NCBI GenBank assembly: GCA_026180655.1
Contig: GCA_026180655.1_4341.1
DNA length: 43,041 nucleotides
Origin: a phage
Direction: 5' to 3' (one strand)
Numbering within the stretch: position 1 is the first letter of the stretch; each line of letters starts with the position of its first letter. A program made the position numbers and the translations under genes. Of this stretch, positions 4,475 to 37,781 are shown in pieces. Below the pieces are notes generated by a model. That model had not been told where the DNA came from and made no database searches. It worked only from the letters and a program-made list of their open reading frames with translations.

Positions 4475-6762
4475 TACTTGAACCCCGGCGCGTTTCTTGT
4501 GGCCTTGCGGGCCTTGCTAATCTTACTGTTGCTGTTCTGCAAAGATGCGGCCACTTGCTCTTCTATGATGATGCGCAAACGGCCTTCATCATCCTGCTCA
4601 GTGGATACGTTGCCAATCTGACTCGATGTGTTATTTACGATGGTAACATTAGATGGGCCGGAAGAAGACCCATTTTGCCCCATAATCTCTTTCATTTGTT
4701 GCGCGGTGCGTACTCGCGACGCCCCTGCGGGCATGATTACCTCAGGTTTACCGCGTTCGGCAATGGTCGATGCCTGCCCTGCGGATAACTGACCGCCCTG
4801 TTCGCGCGCTGATCGGATAGCTGAAACCTGTGCCATACCCGCACCAACGGCAGCGGCAGCGGCTACAGGCGCAAGGAATGGCCCAACAACCGGGATAGCA
4901 GCCGTTGACTTGTATGCCTCGATAGCTGCGGTATACGTAGCGATAGTGGCCTGTACAATAGCGAACGCCTTATAAGCCCCGGATGCCTCCCCTAACGCGG
5001 AGCCAATGTTTGAGGCCATGTTGCCAAAAGCTGTTGCCGTCGCGTCGGCTCGCTTGGTTGCGTATTGCTCGTTGATAGCATTAAGTGCGGCCTGATACTG
5101 CTTCTCGCTAATCAAACCCTGCTCGCGGTACTTATCCGCTACCGCCAGTTTCTGCTGTTCCTGAATATCCAGAAGCTCAAGCTCGGTGGCGTTCTGGCCC
5201 ATAATCTGAGCCATGAAATCATCGCCTTTCTGTTGCTTCTCCTGGGCTTCTTTCTGGCGTTTATCAAGTTCATCTTGTCGTTTTTGCCCTGCCTCAAGAA
5301 CAATGGCAGTTTTAGCCTGCTCGTACTCTTTTAACGACAGCGCACCCTGACTGTAGAACTCTTTCGCTTTAGCCAGTTTCTGCTGTTCCTGCGCGTCAAT
5401 AGCCTTTAACTCGTCGTTGTTCTGACGGGCCAAAGTGTCGAGGTAATCCTGCGCCTGATTCCGCAATTGCTCTGCTTTCTTAGCGGCTGCTTTTGCGGCT
5501 TTATCGTCGGTTTTTCCTGTCCCACCAGTCCCGCCCTTTTTATTAACAAGGCTGGCTAAGTCGATTTCTTGTTTCTTGCGCTCGTCATACTGTTTGCGCT
5601 GTTCCTCAATTTCTTTTTTACGCTGTTTCGACCTGTCAGTAATAGCTTGGGATTCCGCCTCAGCGCGTTTTATGCTGGCGGCATACGCGGCGTCGGCCTC
5701 CGCGGTCAGGTTTTTAAATGTGAGCGCCGCCGTTTTGCTAGGGTCGAACACATCGGCAATAGTCTGGCCTAACGCCACAGCATAGTCGTCGATGCGCTGG
5801 AACCATGCGATAACCTCGTGGAAAGTCTGCTGAATATCAGGCAGCCACTCGCGGATGGCGTCGGGGATTGTGCCAAGCGAATCTGACATGTCCGCAGATT
5901 TGTCTTCTGTGTCGTACGCCAAATCGTTCAAAGCATCAGAAATAAACTTGAACGACTCATTGAACAGCGTCACCCAATCCTGGAGCGTAGCAGCTATCTC
6001 ATTAGACGCGATGGCGTCGGTGAGCGCCGTGATAGCATCTTCTGCTGTCGCCGCTTGCTCGCCTACCGCGTCACCGAAACCAGACTGCGCTACTGCAAGA
6101 ACAAGACCATCGAAGGAGTCAGCAAGGCTCGACAACTGCCCATCTAAGGTCTTCGAACGCGTTTCCATCGCCCCTGCAAAATCAGTGTTACCTATGTTCA
6201 GGAGGTATTTCTGAATTTCTTCGGAGTTCTTCTTAACCGTGGTCGTTACGCCACGGAACGTGAACGAAACAGTATCAGCCTGCTGTGACGACTTGATGCC
6301 AAACTCTTTCAGTCGCTCGAATTCAAATGTACTGGCGTCGGCAACTGCCTCAATCATCTGATTAAGGTCTTTACCCATCGCCGCAGCGGTGTTGCCGTAG
6401 GAAATCAAAGCCTCTTTGCTGGGGTTAAGCCCGAGCGCCACGAGCTTGGTAAATCCCTCTACCGCCTGGTTAAGGCCATACGGGGTTTCTTTCGCGAACT
6501 GTTGCAGGACGCTGAAAGCCTTAGCCGCGTTCTCGGCGCTCCCGGTCATCGTGATGAGGCCGGAGTTCAGCTTATCGAAGTTGCGCTGGGAGTCCACCAG
6601 CGCACTGAACACCTGCTTAGCGGTTTCCAGACTGACGACGGCAGCAGCAGCGGCCCCAGCCGCCTTAGTAAGCCCGTTCAGTTGTGATGTGGTTTTATCG
6701 ACGCCGGTCGATGATACTCGTACTATCAAGCTAGCGGTATCAGCCATGATTTCTACCTTCAA
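4474..6762 (-). CDS. Tail tape measure protein
   Basis: 762 aa, long Ala/Gln/Glu/Lys-rich coiled-coil stretches, Gly-rich segment (GGTGGTGKTDDKAAKAAAKK), position after the chaperone pair. Confidence 0.8.
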   Translation of the reverse strand: MKVEIMADTASLIVRVSSTGVDKTTSQLNGLTKAAGAAAAAVVSLETAKQVFSALVDSQRNFDKLNSGLITMTGSAENAAKAFSVLQQFAKETPYGLNQAVEGFTKLVALGLNPSKEALISYGNTAAAMGKDLNQMIEAVADASTFEFERLKEFGIKSSQQADTVSFTFRGVTTTVKKNSEEIQKYLLNIGNTDFAGAMETRSKTLDGQLSSLADSFDGLVLAVAQSGFGDAVGEQAATAEDAITALTDAIASNEIAATLQDWVTLFNESFKFISDALNDLAYDTEDKSADMSDSLGTIPDAIREWLPDIQQTFHEVIAWFQRIDDYAVALGQTIADVFDPSKTAALTFKNLTAEADAAYAASIKRAEAESQAITDRSKQRKKEIEEQRKQYDERKKQEIDLASLVNKKGGTGGTGKTDDKAAKAAAKKAEQLRNQAQDYLDTLARQNNDELKAIDAQEQQKLAKAKEFYSQGALSLKEYEQAKTAIVLEAGQKRQDELDKRQKEAQEKQQKGDDFMAQIMGQNATELELLDIQEQQKLAVADKYREQGLISEKQYQAALNAINEQYATKRADATATAFGNMASNIGSALGEASGAYKAFAIVQATIATYTAAIEAYKSTAAIPVVGPFLAPVAAAAAVGAGMAQVSAIRSAREQGGQLSAGQASTIAERGKPEVIMPAGASRVRTAQQMKEIMGQNGSSSGPSNVTIVNNTSSQIGNVSTEQDDEGRLRIIIEEQVAASLQNSNSKISKARKATRNAPGFK

Positions 6763-7691: not shown

Positions 7692-7883
7692 ATGTCCAGT
7701 TTACCAATTTCCTTAATCCTGTTTGCACTGCTCGTGTACTTTGCGCCTTTTTTAGTTGCCTACTTCCGCAACCATAAAGCAAAGCTGGCGATATTCATGG
7801 CTAACTTATTTCTCGGATGGGTTCTGTTGCCGTGGGTATTCATTTTAATCTGGGCTTGCAACTCGAACGTGAAAGAGAAGTAA
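7692..7883 (+). CDS. Small two-TM membrane protein, superinfection-immunity (Imm)-like
   Basis: 63 aa, two hydrophobic helices, motif FRNHKAKLAIFMANLFLGWVLLPWVFILIWA recalled as typical of Imm-type superinfection immunity proteins; GAAGGGG RBS; opposite strand to flanking tail genes. Confidence 0.45.
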   Translation: MSSLPISLILFALLVYFAPFLVAYFRNHKAKLAIFMANLFLGWVLLPWVFILIWACNSNVKEK

Positions 7884-7921
7884 GCTACTATAAGACAAAT
7901 CCTAAACACGAGGAAGTAAGC

Positions 7922-9052
7922 ATGGCCCGGAAGAAAATAACCGACGAGCAGTTACAGGAAGAATTGAACGCCGGAACAAAGATTATCGACATATCCCGTA
8001 AATACGGCATCTCAGACCGCGTAATTCGTATCCGTAAAGCGAAGCTAGCTAAAAAAGGTGTAGGCCACGGGCGCGACGTTAGCCACCTTGTCCCGGACGG
8101 CTACAAGATTAAAGGAACGTCGTCACTGGTGGACGAGTTCGGCAACACTAAACTGCAATGGGTTAAGACCGACACCGACGCCGAACGCCAGGTAGAGTTG
8201 ATGAAAGCCGTAATCGAGGGCATGAAGTCAGAGATTACGCCAGTTGCGCCTGTTAAAGCCACCCGCACCAAACGTGACGATAAACTACTCAATCTTTACA
8301 CGGTATCTGATTTACATCTCGGTATGCTGGCCTGGGCCGACGAGAGCGGCGACGACTGGGATATGAAGATTGCGGAAGACCTGTTTTCTCGATGGTTCGA
8401 CGCAGCGTTTCAGAAAGCACCGGATGCAGGAACAGGAGTCATTAACCTGCTAGGCGACTTCGCACACTTCGATAGTCTTGATGCCGTTACCCCTGAGTCG
8501 CGTCATGTGTTGGACGCAGACACGCGCTATCAGAAACTTGTACGCTACATGATTCGTATGGTCCGCCGTGTTGTAGATATGGCGCTGGTTAAACATAAAA
8601 CCGTTCGCTTGCTTATTGTGCAAGGGAACCACGACGAAAGCGGAATGATTTGGTTGGCTGAGATGTTCAGTACGCTGTATGATAACGAGCCGCGTGTGTT
8701 CGTCGATACGTCGCCGGACGTTTACAAGATGGTACGGCACGGCAAAACGACGCTGTTCTTCCATCACGGGCATAAAGCACGATTCGACGCTATCGAACCG
8801 GTTATGATTGCCAAGTTCCGCAAAGCGTTTGGTGAGAGCGTTTACAGCTACGCCCACGTAGGCCACCTGCACCATCAGAAGATTGTAGAAAGCCGTAATA
8901 TGATTGTTGAGCAACACCGCACCTTAGCGGCGAAAGACGCCTACGCCTCTCGCGGTGGATGGATGTCGGGCCGGAGTGCAAATGTAATTACTTATAGCGC
9001 CGAATATGGTGAGGTCGCACGTTTAACTATTTCACCGGAGATGCTGGGATGA
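7922..9052 (+). CDS. Calcineurin-like metallophosphoesterase with N-terminal HTH domain
   Basis: Motifs D-x-H (VSDLHLG), GD-x-x-D (LGDFAHFD), GNH[DE] (QGNHDE), HHGH and GHLHH; N-terminal 60 aa HTH-like (IIDISRKYGISDRVIRIRKAKL); GAGGAAG RBS before ATG 7922. Confidence 0.65.
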   Translation: MARKKITDEQLQEELNAGTKIIDISRKYGISDRVIRIRKAKLAKKGVGHGRDVSHLVPDGYKIKGTSSLVDEFGNTKLQWVKTDTDAERQVELMKAVIEGMKSEITPVAPVKATRTKRDDKLLNLYTVSDLHLGMLAWADESGDDWDMKIAEDLFSRWFDAAFQKAPDAGTGVINLLGDFAHFDSLDAVTPESRHVLDADTRYQKLVRYMIRMVRRVVDMALVKHKTVRLLIVQGNHDESGMIWLAEMFSTLYDNEPRVFVDTSPDVYKMVRHGKTTLFFHHGHKARFDAIEPVMIAKFRKAFGESVYSYAHVGHLHHQKIVESRNMIVEQHRTLAAKDAYASRGGWMSGRSANVITYSAEYGEVARLTISPEMLG

Positions 9053-21853: not shown

Positions 21854-22159
21854 TTAGTAGTCCCATTCCCCGCCCTCCTTTCGCATACTACGAGTTAATA
21901 ACTTATCCTGCAAAACCATAACAGCATCAGCTATGATTTGTACGTGCCACAAATCTTTATCAGCGTACGGCAGTTTGTTAGGGTCGGACGACGATACGCA
22001 GGTTGTTATCTTGGACCGCATAATGTCGATAAGAGTCAATAATTGCTTTTCATCGCCGCTTTGAAGCACTAAGCTGACAAGTGTTTCGTATTCAGCGTTC
22101 TTTTCATCAACCGGGCTTTGTTTAATACCACAACATCTGCAAGGTTTCATCTCACTCAT
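21854..22159 (-). CDS. Hypothetical protein with N-terminal Cys cluster
   Basis: 101 aa, CRCCG near N-terminus; ATGA-type overlap with upstream gene. Confidence 0.3.
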   Translation of the reverse strand: MSEMKPCRCCGIKQSPVDEKNAEYETLVSLVLQSGDEKQLLTLIDIMRSKITTCVSSSDPNKLPYADKDLWHVQIIADAVMVLQDKLLTRSMRKEGGEWDY

Positions 22160-22413
22160 TCCCCACTCTCCCCTTTAGCAATGCGTTGCTCTGTTTTAGT
22201 GATACCGCGGCGAGTGAATAACACCGGGCTTGTCTTAACGTGCGTCATCAGACGGTTGTTATAGATTACGTGGCGCTCGCAATTAACGTCTTTGCTGTAC
22301 TTGGCAATCGTCATTTCGTTGATGCCGGTTTGTCTGCATGTCTCTGCCATCGTGCCGAATTCTTTAATCAGGTTCGGAATGCTGGTAATCAGGTTCGGAA
22401 TGCTGGTAATCAT
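22156..22413 (-). CDS. HTH-like small protein carrying an in-frame 7-aa duplication
   Basis: 85 aa; N-terminus ITSIPNL-ITSIPNL encoded by a perfect 21-bp tandem repeat; HTH-like segment CRQTGINEMTIAKYSKD. Confidence 0.35.
   Translation of the reverse strand: MITSIPNLITSIPNLIKEFGTMAETCRQTGINEMTIAKYSKDVNCERHVIYNNRLMTHVKTSPVLFTRRGITKTEQRIAKGESGE
22364..22410. repeat. Perfect 21-bp tandem duplication (about 2.2 copies)
   Basis: ATCAGGTTCGGAATGCTGGTA at 22365-22385 and 22386-22406, followed by partial ATCA. Confidence 0.9.
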
Positions 22414-24003: not shown

Positions 24004-24096
24004 TCAACCTTTGCGAAACGTATCAATAGCACCCCAGAAAGCACCAACTACAGCACCGGCACCGATAGACAATAGAATGAAGTCAATCTCTGTCAT
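24004..24096 (-). CDS. 30-aa single-TM peptide coupled to endolysin gene
   Basis: ATG 24096 overlaps endolysin TGA (ATGA); MTEIDFILLSIGAGAVVGAFWGAIDTFRKG; too short for ORF track. Confidence 0.3.
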   Translation of the reverse strand: MTEIDFILLSIGAGAVVGAFWGAIDTFRKG

Positions 24097-24578
24097 TTAA
24101 CAGCCCTCCCAATAGCCTCCGCCTCTTGCCACGGTTTACCGTTGAACAGCGCCAGACGACCCGCAGTACGGCGACGCAGGCCGAGTAGTGGTTTGCCGTT
24201 CTGGTTGATGAACAGCGCCAGCTTAGCCCGCAGTGTCGCAATATCACCAGAACGAAGCGCCTTACCTGTACCTGTAGTAGCCGCAATCACGCCCGCACCC
24301 GCGTTATACACCAGGTCGCACACAGCGTCGAACTGCGCCTGTGTCAACGAATGGTGTGCTGCTGCATCAACCGCAGCCACGGCCTTAGCCATATCGCGAT
24401 TAAGCAGCAGGAGGCCCTGCCCTGGCGTGATGGTCTTGCCCGGTGTTACGTCAGGCCCGTAGTGACCGTAGCCTATCGTCAGGTACTTCTCGTTCGGCGT
24501 AGCGCGATATGCGGTTCCGCGGAATCCCTCGAACGCGGCGGTAAAATGCAGTCCATTATCTGAAATATTTCGAGACAC
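24093..24578 (-). CDS. Endolysin, phage lysozyme (GH24-like muramidase)
   Basis: Likely GTG start at 24578 with GGAGGA RBS; lysozyme signature FEGFRGTAYRATPNEKYLTIGYGHYG; follows two holin-like genes. Confidence 0.7.
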   Translation of the reverse strand: MSRNISDNGLHFTAAFEGFRGTAYRATPNEKYLTIGYGHYGPDVTPGKTITPGQGLLLLNRDMAKAVAAVDAAAHHSLTQAQFDAVCDLVYNAGAGVIAATTGTGKALRSGDIATLRAKLALFINQNGKPLLGLRRRTAGRLALFNGKPWQEAEAIGRAVK

Positions 24579-24828
24579 GCTTATATCCTCCGTATGACAG
24601 CCACGCCTGGCGAATCTGACGCAGCGCAACTAATGTGATTAACGTCTCGGGCAGAGTCGGCGACATGCTGCCATGTAACAGGTGGATGCATCCGGCAGCG
24701 CAGACGATAGCGGTAAGGATATAGAGCACCCGTCCAAATAGCCCGTCGTCAACGCTGGGATGATATACATTAAACAGCGACGTGCCTCCGATTGCCAGCA
24801 TACCGCCGAACCAGAATAACTCATTCAT
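24556..24828 (-). CDS. Holin/antiholin-like membrane protein (2 TM)
   Basis: 90 aa, two hydrophobic helices, basic C-terminus; GAGGAGG RBS; between holin and endolysin. Confidence 0.45.
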   Translation of the reverse strand: MNELFWFGGMLAIGGTSLFNVYHPSVDDGLFGRVLYILTAIVCAAGCIHLLHGSMSPTLPETLITLVALRQIRQAWLSYGGYKRVSKYFR

Positions 24829-25129
24829 CTGGGCCTCCTCGACGTGCGATGTATTCCCCGGCGACGATACCGGAGAGACGGGAATAGATAGGCATCCAGA
24901 GAATAGCGATAATGAATCCGAGGCCAGCTATCTCGCGCTCCCCAGTAATGCCAAACCATTGAGCCGCAAGAGGTGCCCCAAATACGGCGCAGGTGAAGCC
25001 AGTTGCGATAAAGCAGAAGCCGTCGATGGGGCCAGAAATAACGGACTTATGTTGTCGTAGTCCGATTACCCCTCCGGCTAGTGCGGCGGCGAGAAGCCAG
25101 CCTGTCACTGTTTCAGTAAATTTATCCAA
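24821..25129 (-). CDS. Holin (3 TM), putative
   Basis: 102 aa with three hydrophobic helices and charged C-terminus; TTG start with GGAGG RBS; first gene of lysis cassette. Confidence 0.5.
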   Translation of the reverse strand: MDKFTETVTGWLLAAALAGGVIGLRQHKSVISGPIDGFCFIATGFTCAVFGAPLAAQWFGITGEREIAGLGFIIAILWMPIYSRLSGIVAGEYIARRGGPDE

Positions 25130-25188
25130 GATGAATCCTCCAGGTGCGTATTAAGTATGCAGTAACTGGAGGATACCACGGGTAGGAA

Positions 25189-25629
25189 TTATCCTAATAG
25201 TTGTTTGGTAATAATCTTGCCGCCTGTGTTAGTGTCGAACTTCGAGGCAACGGCCACACCACCGTGTGCCGAATACCCGCATCCCATAGCCGCCAGCGCA
25301 TAAGGAGAACCGGAGCCTACTGCGGCAAAGCTATCAGCAATCGGAATAACTGAACTAAGGGCACAATCCCACGATTTATAAAAAGCGACTTTATACACCT
25401 TTTCTGTGTCTTTCACGAACACCAGGGCTTCGAAATCGAAGTCGTAGTGCTGCGCCCGAAGAATACCCGGGAAATCGATAAGCATAGCCCCTACCCCCGC
25501 GTCGCCAGCTACACCGATTACATAAGTGTCATTCTCATATATCTTTGTGTCTGTGTTGTAACAGTTACTCCCGCACACAACACGGGTGTCACACGCCATT
25601 GTCTTTCCATCAAACGTGATAGTAGTCAT
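25189..25629 (-). CDS. HslV/proteasome beta-like N-terminal-nucleophile peptidase
   Basis: Starts MTTI (Thr directly after Met as in HslV MTTIV), VIGVAGDAGVG and AVGSGSPYALAAMG matching HslV VIAGFAGGTADA and IGSGGPYAQAAA; ATGA coupling to upstream gene. Confidence 0.5.
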   Translation of the reverse strand: MTTITFDGKTMACDTRVVCGSNCYNTDTKIYENDTYVIGVAGDAGVGAMLIDFPGILRAQHYDFDFEALVFVKDTEKVYKVAFYKSWDCALSSVIPIADSFAAVGSGSPYALAAMGCGYSAHGGVAVASKFDTNTGGKIITKQLLG

Positions 25630-25952
25630 TTATGTCTCCAGATGTATTGTCGTCTCTGCGGTTTCGTCGGAATATCATCGTACCCCAGCGATTTCCAGTA
25701 ATTAAATAACCGATTAGCTATTGCTGCGCGTTCCTGTGTTTTGAACTCACCGAGATTCACGGCCTTCCCGTTCTGGAACCCGCAGGCACGGACAGCCTTA
25801 CGTCTGGCCTGAATCTCAGGGAACAGCGCGTTACCCCGACGCTTGTATATCTGTGTTTTAACTCTCGGTGACAGCGGCGCAAGGCCGCTTCGTTTCAGGA
25901 TGTCAGTTACCAACGACATCACTCCACCCCTCCACATGTGTAACTGACCCAC
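25626..25952 (-). CDS. Hypothetical basic protein
   Basis: 108-aa ORF, Arg/Lys-rich. Confidence 0.3.
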   Translation of the reverse strand: MGQLHMWRGGVMSLVTDILKRSGLAPLSPRVKTQIYKRRGNALFPEIQARRKAVRACGFQNGKAVNLGEFKTQERAAIANRLFNYWKSLGYDDIPTKPQRRQYIWRHK

Positions 25953-32522: not shown

Positions 32523-32795
32523 ATGATTTATCAACTCTACCGAGCCGTAGACAGGCGGGATAACACAGAGGCGCTATGGCTGTTACGTGCACCGTCCGGT
32601 GCGTATCAGATGGAAGAGATGGCGTACTTAGGAAAAGTACCACGGCCTAAAGATATAGGCCGTCATGTGTCGCAGATTAAGCGCACGACTTTTGCCAAAC
32701 CTGACTTTTATGTCTTCGAGTCGATGTATGGGTGGGCCATGCACTGCGACCATAAGACGCGACATTTAATTGACCAGTGGGAGAACAGGGTATGA
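32523..32795 (+). CDS. Hypothetical protein
   Basis: 90-aa ORF. Confidence 0.3.
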   Translation: MIYQLYRAVDRRDNTEALWLLRAPSGAYQMEEMAYLGKVPRPKDIGRHVSQIKRTTFAKPDFYVFESMYGWAMHCDHKTRHLIDQWENRV

Positions 32796-33286
32796 ATTGG
32801 CACGAACTGTTCGACTATGACCCGGATACAGGTAAGTTGTTTTGGAAGATAAGCCCTTCGGATAAGGTAAAGGTAGGCCAAGAGGCGGGGTCGAATGATG
32901 TTCACGGCTATAAACAGGTACAAGTGTTAGGTAAGGTCCATAAAGTGCACCGTGTTATATGGGAACTTTGTAATACTAATGATGTTTTAAGTAGCAGCGA
33001 CCAGATTGACCATATAGACCATGACAGAAGGGATAATCGCATATCTAATCTTCGTAAAGTTGACAGTCTAGGCAACCGGCGTAATTCTGGAATGTCGTCG
33101 CTAAATACGTCAGGTGTAACCGGAGTTTCATGGTGCCGTAGGCGCGGTAGATGGCGGGCAAGTATAAAAATAAACAAGGTATCGAAGCATTTAGGATACT
33201 TCGACAGCTTCGACGATGCGGTAAACGTTAGAAAGAAAGCAGAAGAGATTTACGGGTTCCACAAAAATCATGGGGTTAAAAGATGA
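32792..33286 (+). CDS. HNH homing endonuclease with AP2-like DNA-binding domain (copy 1)
   Basis: ATGA overlap with upstream gene; MNWHELFDYDPDTGKLFW, His/Asn-containing HNH core (HRVIW...DHIDHDRRDNRISNL), C-terminal AP2-like GVTGVSWCRRRGRWRASI; paralog at 41034. Confidence 0.6.
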   Translation: MNWHELFDYDPDTGKLFWKISPSDKVKVGQEAGSNDVHGYKQVQVLGKVHKVHRVIWELCNTNDVLSSSDQIDHIDHDRRDNRISNLRKVDSLGNRRNSGMSSLNTSGVTGVSWCRRRGRWRASIKINKVSKHLGYFDSFDDAVNVRKKAEEIYGFHKNHGVKR

Positions 33287-35341: not shown

Positions 35342-35507
35342 TAAGGGTCAAAATAATGATTTTCTGTAAGCACGTTTATCGCTATATGAAACCGCTTCCG
35401 TGGTATGCAGACGAGTACCGGGCCGGGTACAGGCATGTGTAGATTTGCCGTGATTGTATGAAAATAAGATTAAGCGAAACGAAGGCACTGGATTTAAGGA
35501 AAAAGAA

Positions 35508-37781
35508 ATGAGCTACTTATACCTTGACTTTGAAACATTCTCTGAGGCCGATTTAAATAAAGTCGGGTCCTACGCTTACGCCGAACACCCGACTACCGAA
35601 GTGCTTATCTGTACCTATGCTTTTGATGACGAGCCTGTGCAGGTGTGGGATTGCACCGACGGCAGCGACATGCCGGGCGATTTGCACCGAGCGCTACGCC
35701 GCCTGGTTAAGCCAAATAGCCGTATCAAGATGGTGTGGCACAATGGCTCAATGTTCGATAGGCTCATCATGAAGCACTGCTGGGGCTTTGACATCCCTGT
35801 AAGTAACACCATTGATACGATGATTTGGGCGTTTCGTCACGCGTTGCCGGGTTCACTCGAGGCATTGTGCGAAGTGTTGGGCGTGTCCGCGGACAATGCG
35901 AAAGACAAACGCGGCAAGGCGCTGATTAAGCGTTTCTCTAAACCTACGCCGAAGAACTACAAAATCCGCCGCTATACCTCCGAAACGCACCCGGATGAGT
36001 GGGCGCTGTTCATCAAATACGCTGTGAGCGACATCACTGCGATGCGAGAAGTATTCCATAAGCTGCCGCGGTGGGGTAACTCGGAGTTCGAGGACCGCGT
36101 ACTGGAACTGGACCAATTAATCAATGACCGAGGCTTCTTTGTTGATACGGCTCTTGCTGAGGCGGCGGTAGCAGCAGTTGAACGCCACAAGCAAGAGCTA
36201 AAAAACGAGGCCCGCGCGAAATTCGGGGGAAAACTAACCGGCAAAGATTTCCTGCCAATCCTTCGGGAACTGGCACCGGCCTACAATATTTATAATGCGC
36301 AGAAAGCAACGCTCGAAAGTTTGTTAGAGGACGACGACTTGCCCGACGATGCGCGTACAATCATTGAGATGCGCCTCGGCGCGGCCTCCACGGCGTCAAC
36401 AAAATATAAACCGCTCCTGCTAGGACGGTCCAAAGACGGACGACGTCGTGGCTGCATCCAGTATGGCGGCGCGAAGCGCACTTTACGATTTGCGGGTAAA
36501 GGGTTTCAGCCACAGAACCTGTCGCGCGGGTATTACCACGATGACCCGACTAACGAGGAAAAGAAACTTGTACGCCAGCCGTGGGAGTCCGACGAAGACT
36601 GGAACCGCAGGCTTAACCCGCTATCGTTTGGTATCAATTTGCTTTTAAAGGGTCGGGCGCATCGTCGTTTCGATGTATCTAAACTAACGGCCTCGACCGT
36701 CCGCAGTTGCATCATCCCGGAAAAAGGCAATAAGTTGCTCGTTGCCGACTACTCAAACGTGGAAGGACGTGGGTTAGCCTGGACGGCGGGGGAGACGTCA
36801 GCCCTTGAGACGTTCCGCGCGGGGGTTGATATCTATTGTGCCACAGCTGGTAAGATGTTTGGCATGGACCCCATAGAACTGAAAGCCACCCGTAAAGACC
36901 TACGACAGGTCGGGAAATGTTGCGAGCTTGGCCTCGGCTACGAGGGGGGCGTAGGGGCTTTTATGACTATGGCTAAAACTTACGGGCTGGACCTCTTTAA
37001 AATGACGGAGACAATGCGAGGGACCTTTCCCGACCACATATGGGCCGCCACTGCCCGAGGTTATGAATGGGCGCGGATTCAGGAGGCTAAGCGACCCCCA
37101 AAACCAGGTAAAAAGGACGAACGGGCCTCTTACGTGTTGCCTAAGGAAGTGTGGCGCACCTGCGATGCTATCAAGCGCATGTGGCGGGAAGCCCACCCAG
37201 AAACAGTGAAATTCTGGAACGACCTTAAGGATTCGGTGATCGCCGCAATCAGAAATCCGGGACGAGAGTTTTGGGCGGGGGCCAGAGTCCGCCTTAACGG
37301 CGACAGAGCTATTCGCATCTGGCGTACTAAAGAGAAAGACAGACAGGGTAACTTTGTGCCTGGTTGGTGGTTGTGCGTGGAGCTGCCGTCGGGGCGCATC
37401 ATGTCCTACCCTGGTATAGGCTTAAGCGTCACTAAAGAGACTGACGAGGATGGGCGCGTAACAACTAACGTTCGCATTAAGTACCAGGGCGAAAATCAGA
37501 CCACCCGCCAGTGGACAACTTTGTATACCCACGGCGGAAAATTGTGTGAAAACATCATCCAGGCATTGTGCCGTGATTTACTGGTTAACGGACTCCTGAC
37601 GGTGGAAGCGGCGGGCTACCCAATTGTACTTCATGTGCATGACGAATGTGTCGCCGAAACACCAGACACACCGGAGTACACGGTTAAAGAGATGGGCGAC
37701 CTGCTATGCTCATTACCTGAATGGGCTGAAGGATTCCCACTAACATGGGCCGGGGAAGAGGTGTACCGTTATGTTAAGTAA
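35508..37781 (+). CDS. DNA polymerase, family A, with 3'-5' exonuclease domain
   Basis: ATG 35508 after AAGGAAAAAG RBS; exo motifs DFETFS, WHNGSMFD, YAVSD; pol motif A DYSNVEGR, motif B RKDLRQVGKCCELGLGYEGG, motif C HVHDE. Confidence 0.85.
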   Translation: MSYLYLDFETFSEADLNKVGSYAYAEHPTTEVLICTYAFDDEPVQVWDCTDGSDMPGDLHRALRRLVKPNSRIKMVWHNGSMFDRLIMKHCWGFDIPVSNTIDTMIWAFRHALPGSLEALCEVLGVSADNAKDKRGKALIKRFSKPTPKNYKIRRYTSETHPDEWALFIKYAVSDITAMREVFHKLPRWGNSEFEDRVLELDQLINDRGFFVDTALAEAAVAAVERHKQELKNEARAKFGGKLTGKDFLPILRELAPAYNIYNAQKATLESLLEDDDLPDDARTIIEMRLGAASTASTKYKPLLLGRSKDGRRRGCIQYGGAKRTLRFAGKGFQPQNLSRGYYHDDPTNEEKKLVRQPWESDEDWNRRLNPLSFGINLLLKGRAHRRFDVSKLTASTVRSCIIPEKGNKLLVADYSNVEGRGLAWTAGETSALETFRAGVDIYCATAGKMFGMDPIELKATRKDLRQVGKCCELGLGYEGGVGAFMTMAKTYGLDLFKMTETMRGTFPDHIWAATARGYEWARIQEAKRPPKPGKKDERASYVLPKEVWRTCDAIKRMWREAHPETVKFWNDLKDSVIAAIRNPGREFWAGARVRLNGDRAIRIWRTKEKDRQGNFVPGWWLCVELPSGRIMSYPGIGLSVTKETDEDGRVTTNVRIKYQGENQTTRQWTTLYTHGGKLCENIIQALCRDLLVNGLLTVEAAGYPIVLHVHDECVAETPDTPEYTVKEMGDLLCSLPEWAEGFPLTWAGEEVYRYVK

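Follow-up and report, generated by a model that had tools for sequence, protein, structure and literature searches.

The PPH Gene and Its Neighbors

The window, by which we mean the whole 43,041-nucleotide stretch of phage DNA that was analyzed, is Kagunavirus-like and falls within the Guernseyvirinae, with Escherichia phage UTEC10 as the top DNA match (∼90%; megablast, tblastn). It represents approximately a whole genome: helicase-primase, exonuclease, DNA polymerase, methyltransferase, and SNF2 helicase are among its genes, as are the structural and packaging genes for terminase, portal, head morphogenesis protein, scaffold, major head protein, tail tube, and tape measure. The gene of interest encodes a 146-residue protein with the N-terminus MTTITFDGKTMACD, which we refer to as PPH for reasons given below. 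The gene and its surroundings comprise the following features.

24093..24578, minus strand: endolysin, Phage_lysozyme (PF00959)
24556..24828, minus strand: second holin, 90 aa, phrog_2508
24821..25129, minus strand: first holin, 102 aa, TTG start, phrog_2359
25135..25174, minus strand: RNA hairpin AUCCUCCAG-N22-CUGGAGGAU, 9-bp perfect stem, in the gap between PPH and the first holin
25189..25629, minus strand: PPH coding sequence, 146 aa, proteasome-like Ntn hydrolase
25626..25629, minus strand: ATGA overlap of the upstream-gene stop and the PPH start (PPH ATG, 25629-25627)
25636..25639, minus strand: Shine-Dalgarno GGAG, 6 nt 5' of the PPH ATG, read from the sequence
25626..25919, minus strand: upstream gene, 97 aa from the phrog_9632-matching start, translationally coupled to PPH

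The endolysin start was set at the GTG that gives 161 aa, which is the length annotated in relatives; the open frame itself reaches 24629. An in-frame TAA lies directly before the PPH ATG, so that Thr must be residue 2 and a propeptide is impossible. On rereading the sequence, we found the coordinates, the motifs, and the downstream order of holin, holin, and endolysin to be as given in a preliminary description of this DNA. That description also had the gene ATGA-coupled into the operon that continues into the holins. The ATGA overlap is present, but it couples PPH to the gene upstream and not into the holin, from which PPH is separated by 59 nt. The 97-aa phrog_9632 gene is kept in phages that have no PPH, and it is therefore not a dedicated PPH partner. 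A consensus scan for sigma-70 promoters and terminators around the PPH gene performed no better than on shuffled sequence.

Several other features of the window were recorded. A small ORF (22156-22413, minus strand) begins MITSIPNLITSIPNLIKEF, in which an 8-residue (24-nt) unit is duplicated in tandem at the 5' end. The DNA polymerase ORF (35454-37781, plus strand) contains an internal match to a PHROG annotated as "endonuclease" (phrog_93, residues 486-581), and a free-standing homing-endonuclease-like ORF with HNH_3 and AP2 matches lies near it (32777-33286, plus strand); this polymerase segment and the HNH_3/AP2 ORF may be mobile-element insertions in the replication module. A 411-aa ORF with a weak Metallophos_2 match (7817-9052, plus strand) is found inside the otherwise minus-strand tail gene block.

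Homology Searches and Predicted Fold

Taken alone, the window protein scores 19.9 bits against Pfam Proteasome (PF00227; MEROPS T1), for which the gathering threshold is 22.4, and neither phmmer nor a shallow profile finds anything significant in the PDB. PADLOC likewise has no match for it. PHROG 1040, "peptidase HslV family", matches with an E value of 1.3e-33. An exhaustive profile search returns 4,930 cluster representatives at E ≤1e-3, 412 of them at E ≤1e-10, and these relatives are nearly all 135-160 aa long and align from residue 1. In a set of 106 family sequences the median length is 145 aa, and 55 members match Pfam Proteasome individually (E 0.01 or better; best 1.4e-10). By tblastn, homologues are present in 300 phage records (weakest E 2e-7; recounts at E 1e-48 were consistent), and 171 viral-contig matches were confirmed.

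When the family profile is compared by hhalign with E. coli HslV, using the MG1655 sequence, the two align over 134 columns with 96.7% probability and an E value of 3.6e-10. Against the PDB, the profile matches HslV (4.6e-9) and BPH (6.4e-9), with 20S β subunits weaker (∼1e-6 to 1e-5). The family profile thus recognizes HslV and its relatives, whereas the single sequence stays below the Pfam and NCBIfam cutoffs. An AF2 model built from a 124-sequence alignment has a pLDDT of 92.5 and a pTM of 0.88; a model from a 33-sequence alignment of Guernseyvirinae only had a pLDDT of 60 and was discarded. Foldseek searches with the retained model give top matches that are all proteasome-family chains, and the same fold occurs in many phage proteins in BFVD. 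The hhalign result, the Pfam matches across the family, and the AF2/Foldseek comparison together uphold the original placement of the protein among Ntn hydrolases of the proteasome/HslV superfamily.

We note that the best viral structural match in BFVD, A0A1W6DWU9 (53% identity over 131 columns, TM 0.84), has 263 aa, nearly twice the usual length, and may be a fusion or carry a mis-called start.

Catalytic Residues and Selection

The hhalign alignment places the residues of the window protein opposite those of HslV and the 20S proteasome as follows (HslV/20S numbering, with the 20S residue numbers taken from published papers and established knowledge): Thr2 corresponds to Thr1, Asp14 to Asp17, Lys29 to Lys33, Gly39 to Gly47 (Gly45 in HslV), Ser106 to Ser129, Asp132 to Asp166, and Thr135 to Ser169. 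Conservation was counted over the 106 family sequences, which have a mean identity of ∼30%.

Met-Thr start: 105 of 106, plus one Met-Ser
Asp14: 106 of 106
Lys29: 106 of 106
Gly105 and Gly107: 106 of 106
Ser106: 97 of 106
Asp132: 101 of 106
Position 135: Thr, Ser, or Cys in every sequence

The placement of Thr immediately after the initiator Met, first noticed in the MTTI start of the window protein, is therefore a trait of the family. Among the Kagunavirus PPH copies dN/dS is 0.11-0.19, and these low values, taken with the conserved catalytic set, argue that an enzyme function is under selection. Judged from its sequence, the PPH product looks enzymatically intact. Residue 59 (codon 25455-25453), in the loop after the single short helix of the model, is Ala in the window protein and in its closest relative, P0001; at least 90% of the wider family has Pro there.

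The Protein Is Not HslV Proper

The preliminary description called the protein an HslV/proteasome-like peptidase that would have to act alone or with the host unfoldase. The NCBIfam equivalog models for HslV reject it widely, with 14.4 bits against a cutoff of 157.75 for TIGR03692 and 13.6 against 137 for NF003964. Where HslV has H1 and H2, the AF2 model shows a single 5-residue helix (46-50), flanked by strands 36-42 and 66-72, and hhalign opens gaps totaling ∼25 residues opposite the H2 region of HslV. The model ends three residues past the last core strand (139-143), with no C-terminal S12/H5 and no C-terminal extension. In HslV, the basic pore cluster of R86, R89, and K90 is needed for activity and is rearranged on HslU binding (PMC5777263). 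In the hhalign alignment, R86 is aligned to Asp65, which is invariant in the family, and R89 and K90 face a gap. The protein is accordingly no HslV orthologue, and with H2 and R86/R89/K90 lost, use of the host HslU by PPH is unlikely.

The window contains no AAA+ unfoldase of the Clp type, HslU type, or other kind, which agrees with the earlier statement that no HslU-like ATPase is present; the only AAA match is AAA_25 (DnaB/RecA-like), in the helicase-primase. Nor was any HslU-like protein found in 80 viral PPH neighborhoods. A phage HslV that recruits the host HslU would form an HslUV-like ATP-dependent protease degrading folded host proteins. Such an arrangement is suggested by the fold and catalytic residues common to HslV and PPH, by the presence of hslU beside hslV in the host E. 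coli, and by the label "ATP-dependent protease" in some GenBank records. We nevertheless consider it very unlikely, because the equivalog scores and the lost H2 and pore residues speak against it and because phages of many different hosts carry the family, and no ATPase recurs beside it. The related BPH, moreover, has lost the HslU-interface residues and did not pull down HslU (PMC5777263).

Membership in the Published PPH Family

In 2021, Fuchs, Alva, and Lupas described PPH as a ∼140-residue protein of Caudovirales and prophages that belongs to group I and radiates from BPH and HslV (PMC8665760). It lacks a propeptide, H2, and the C-terminal S12/H5, is not accompanied by an AAA+ partner, and has no known function; the absence of H2 is shared only with RPC, which a C-terminal extension sets apart from PPH (PMC8665760). 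Part of the PPH genes lie in bacterial contexts, and no informative gene context was reported (PMC8665760). The 146-aa window protein agrees with this description in each feature compared. It is of the expected size and has the Met-Thr start without a propeptide; it has the proteasome β-sheet core with Thr1/Asp17/Lys33 and the Gly47 oxyanion hole; the AF2 model and hhalign show neither H2 nor S12/H5 nor a C-terminal extension; and it is encoded by a tailed phage, the Kagunavirus-like genome itself, with homologues in the 300 phage records and the 171 viral-contig matches. By this match to published features, the gene product is almost certainly a PPH-family Ntn hydrolase. Within the proteasome-like N-terminal-nucleophile hydrolases, PPH forms a minimal branch of the HslV/BPH group. 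The PPH representative WP_042125023.1 did not appear in a cluster look-up of ten NCBI-sourced matches.

The preliminary description was aware of no described role for such a protein in this gene context. The family itself is already known: it was published in 2021 as PPH, it has the PHROG number 1040, and many GenBank records annotate it, in which orthologues up to 93% identical are called "peptidase HslV family", "ATP-dependent protease", "protease", or "hypothetical protein". Recognition of the superfamily from raw sequence was thus correct, but it re-identifies a published family. That no biological role had been described agrees with our literature search, which turned up neither a role for PPH nor any experimental study of PPH or of the Guernseyvirinae gene. 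What is added here beyond Fuchs et al. is the presence/absence polymorphism within the Guernseyvirinae and the preferred site of the family at the lysis/packaging junction.

Patchy Distribution and the Proposed Link to Lysis

The order PPH, holin, holin, endolysin is conserved in Jerseyvirus (Ent3) and in Kagunavirus (Bas73, NTEC3). From the position of the gene in the window it had been suggested that PPH is co-expressed with lysis or host takeover, for example to degrade host defence or lysis-timing proteins. In one form of this idea, PPH would be part of the lysis programme, for example by degrading an antiholin or another lysis-timing protein, and would be made together with the holins and endolysin. 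Its position directly upstream of holin-holin-endolysin in both genera is in keeping with such a role, as are the lambdoid-type relatives, in which PPH follows holin, endolysin, and Rz at a distance of a few genes.

The distribution of the gene argues otherwise. Kagunavirus-type PPH copies number 33, against 119 records with the same holin (≥80% identity), or ∼28%, and 86 of the 119 are without PPH; a permissive tblastn added no further copies of this type. PPH is thus not regularly inherited together with the adjoining holin and endolysin. In Jerseyvirus, ∼261 records have PPH compared with ∼319 that have the holin, and ∼20% are without PPH. The loss is seen directly in fFiEco03 and XY1, two phages that share 98-99% holin identity with the window. 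In both, the holin leader comes immediately after the 97-aa gene, and the PPH ORF is cleanly missing apart from its start region and its final 11 nt (TATTAGGATAA). The hairpin, the Shine-Dalgarno sequence, and the TTG start are identical to those of the window over the region aligned. Since the holin leader survives this clean loss unchanged, a working lysis cassette needs no PPH. With ∼70% of the same-holin Kagunavirus records lacking the gene and clean deletions in the two that were inspected, the proposed link to lysis does not hold. Since the gene occupies the same site in both genera, the simplest reading is that PPH was ancestral in both and was then lost repeatedly.

The segment between PPH and the holin points in the same direction. 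The 3' arm of the hairpin listed above includes the Shine-Dalgarno sequence of the first holin, GGAGGA, ahead of the TTG start at 25129, and the predicted minimum free energy is -22.5 kcal/mol (z = -3.0). The leader that contains it is identical in Bas73 and in the PPH-less fFiEco03 and XY1. Jerseyvirus Ent3 has a hairpin of another sequence that also buries a GGAG; a U-run and a GUG start come after it, which gives it a terminator-like look. Further hairpin coordinates are L001:4474-4510 and L003:3243-3301. The hairpin may act as a brake on the holin, either in translation or in transcription. There is, then, no translational coupling of PPH to the holin, and a 59-nt gap with an RBS-occluding hairpin lies between them. 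Other relatives of PPH are placed among replication or nucleotide-metabolism genes or on bacterial chromosomes. Taken together, these observations make a part in the lysis programme highly improbable.

Gene Neighborhoods Across the Family

For the 80 viral loci, which were obtained with an 18-sequence subset of queries, ORFs were called, neighbors were clustered, and recurrent clusters were annotated. Same-strand TerS, TerL, portal, or head genes come just after PPH in at least 25 of 48 non-redundant groups, and 8 of those groups also have Rz, holin, or endolysin genes upstream. The lambdoid layout runs NinG, Q, holin, endolysin, Rz, a few genes, PPH, TerS, TerL, portal. From these counts, the PPH family tends to sit at the lysis/packaging junction, a place where accessory or moron genes are typically found. 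This position suggests late or late-transition expression and does not indicate a function.

The frequent packaging and head genes downstream could also be taken to mean that PPH is a virion morphogenesis protease that processes the prohead or scaffold, and no canonical prohead protease was seen among the window head genes scanned. Most Kagunaviruses, however, are without PPH (counted by gene presence, head modules aside), and in the window PPH lies ∼4 kb from the terminase within a block of small genes. The genes of the window also include those for a scaffolding protein and for a head morphogenesis protein like SPP1 gp7; with this arrangement, as in P22 and SPP1, no protease is needed. We regard a morphogenesis protease as extremely unlikely.

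Five distant relatives on long contigs have varied surroundings: a BCS1-like AAA ATPase, a "Phage_stabilise" gene, replication genes, a set with ThyX, RNR, Dam, and HU, and a bacterial chromosome. The BCS1-like AAA+ ATPase (417 aa; BCS1_N, AAA, AAA_lid_BCS1) is encoded two genes downstream of its distant PPH (L005:7353-8606, Ga0613828_000162). We considered it as a possible PPH partner, but no similar protein occurs in the 80 viral loci, and the association is probably coincidental. The bacterial case is a 155-aa member (L009, scaffold_251_c1, 337 kb; gene 5001-5468) in an apparently non-phage chromosome, with CoA-transferase, HMG-lyase-like, short-chain dehydrogenase, and LysR neighbors, which echoes the published remark on bacterial contexts (PMC8665760).

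Proposed Mode of Action

The reading that we favor, and which we hold to be moderately probable as a whole, is that PPH is a stand-alone Thr peptidase that confers a conditional benefit. Translation begins at the ATG at 25629 and is coupled to the upstream gene. Host deformylase and methionine aminopeptidase would then strip Met1, as Thr is a permissive second residue, the same as in E. coli HslV, and would expose Thr1 without a propeptide. Thr1 is the predicted nucleophile, acting with Lys29 and Asp14; the Gly39 backbone would supply the oxyanion hole, and Ser106, Asp132, and Thr135 would position Thr1. The residues of this site are conserved in the alignment, and hydrolysis through Thr1 is what they suggest. 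By analogy with HslV and BPH, the subunits would probably form a single or double ring. Their contacts would run through the retained H3/H4 helices, which in proteasomes join ring to ring (PMC8665760). Since the protein has neither H2 nor the basic pore cluster and is accompanied by no AAA+ gene, PPH would be expected to act independently of HslU, of ATP, and of any dedicated ATPase. Its substrates may be short or unfolded polypeptides, or one specific protein. The patchy, accessory distribution suggests a conditional fitness benefit during infection and not a role in lysis or virion assembly. Among the points that count against this package, BPH, the closest solved relative, is inert on standard substrates, and the Pfam score of the single sequence falls short of the gathering threshold. 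The recurrent site just before terminase and portal could also indicate a role late in infection.

A different possibility is that PPH is no protease at all but a connectase-like ligase or transpeptidase, another amidohydrolase, or a catalytically silent scaffold or decoy. Connectase, a ligase, does belong to the proteasome-like family, BPH gave no proteolysis in standard assays (PMC5777263), and no substrate has been described for PPH (PMC8665760). We give this possibility a small chance. Within the favored stand-alone peptidase reading, a more specific and speculative version, which we think rather unlikely as it stands, is that PPH is an ATP-independent phage mini-proteasome, made around the late-gene transition, whose task is to degrade a single host protein, for instance a defence effector or a regulator of envelope or stress functions. 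If true, this would explain both the strict catalytic conservation and the patchy, host-dependent retention of the gene.

The clade offers a convenient test system, as these are lytic coliphages with natural isolates that differ by a clean PPH deletion. Bas73 was deposited with E. coli as its host and is a BASEL collection phage. Natural plus/minus Kagunavirus pairs on E. coli K-12 would provide a direct test of the stand-alone role of BPH/PPH.

Comparison with Known Systems

We detected no difference between the window protein and published PPH, the likeness being judged by the published description. HslV (ClpQ) is a dodecamer of two hexameric rings, and the E. coli protein likewise begins MTTI. 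Compared with HslV, the PPH protein is 30 residues shorter, is without H2 and R86/R89/K90, and has no hslU partner gene. The β subunits of the 20S proteasome stand further off, as PPH is much smaller and has no propeptide, no α-ring partner, no H2, and no C-terminal elements. BPH (PDB 5ovs, 5ovt), at 185-200 aa, keeps H2 and has a long acidic pore loop; it is chromosomal, lies in stress-linked operons, and forms tetradecamers, whereas PPH is carried by phages and prophages. BPH was inert on standard peptides and casein, yet it bound epoxomicin (PMC5777263).
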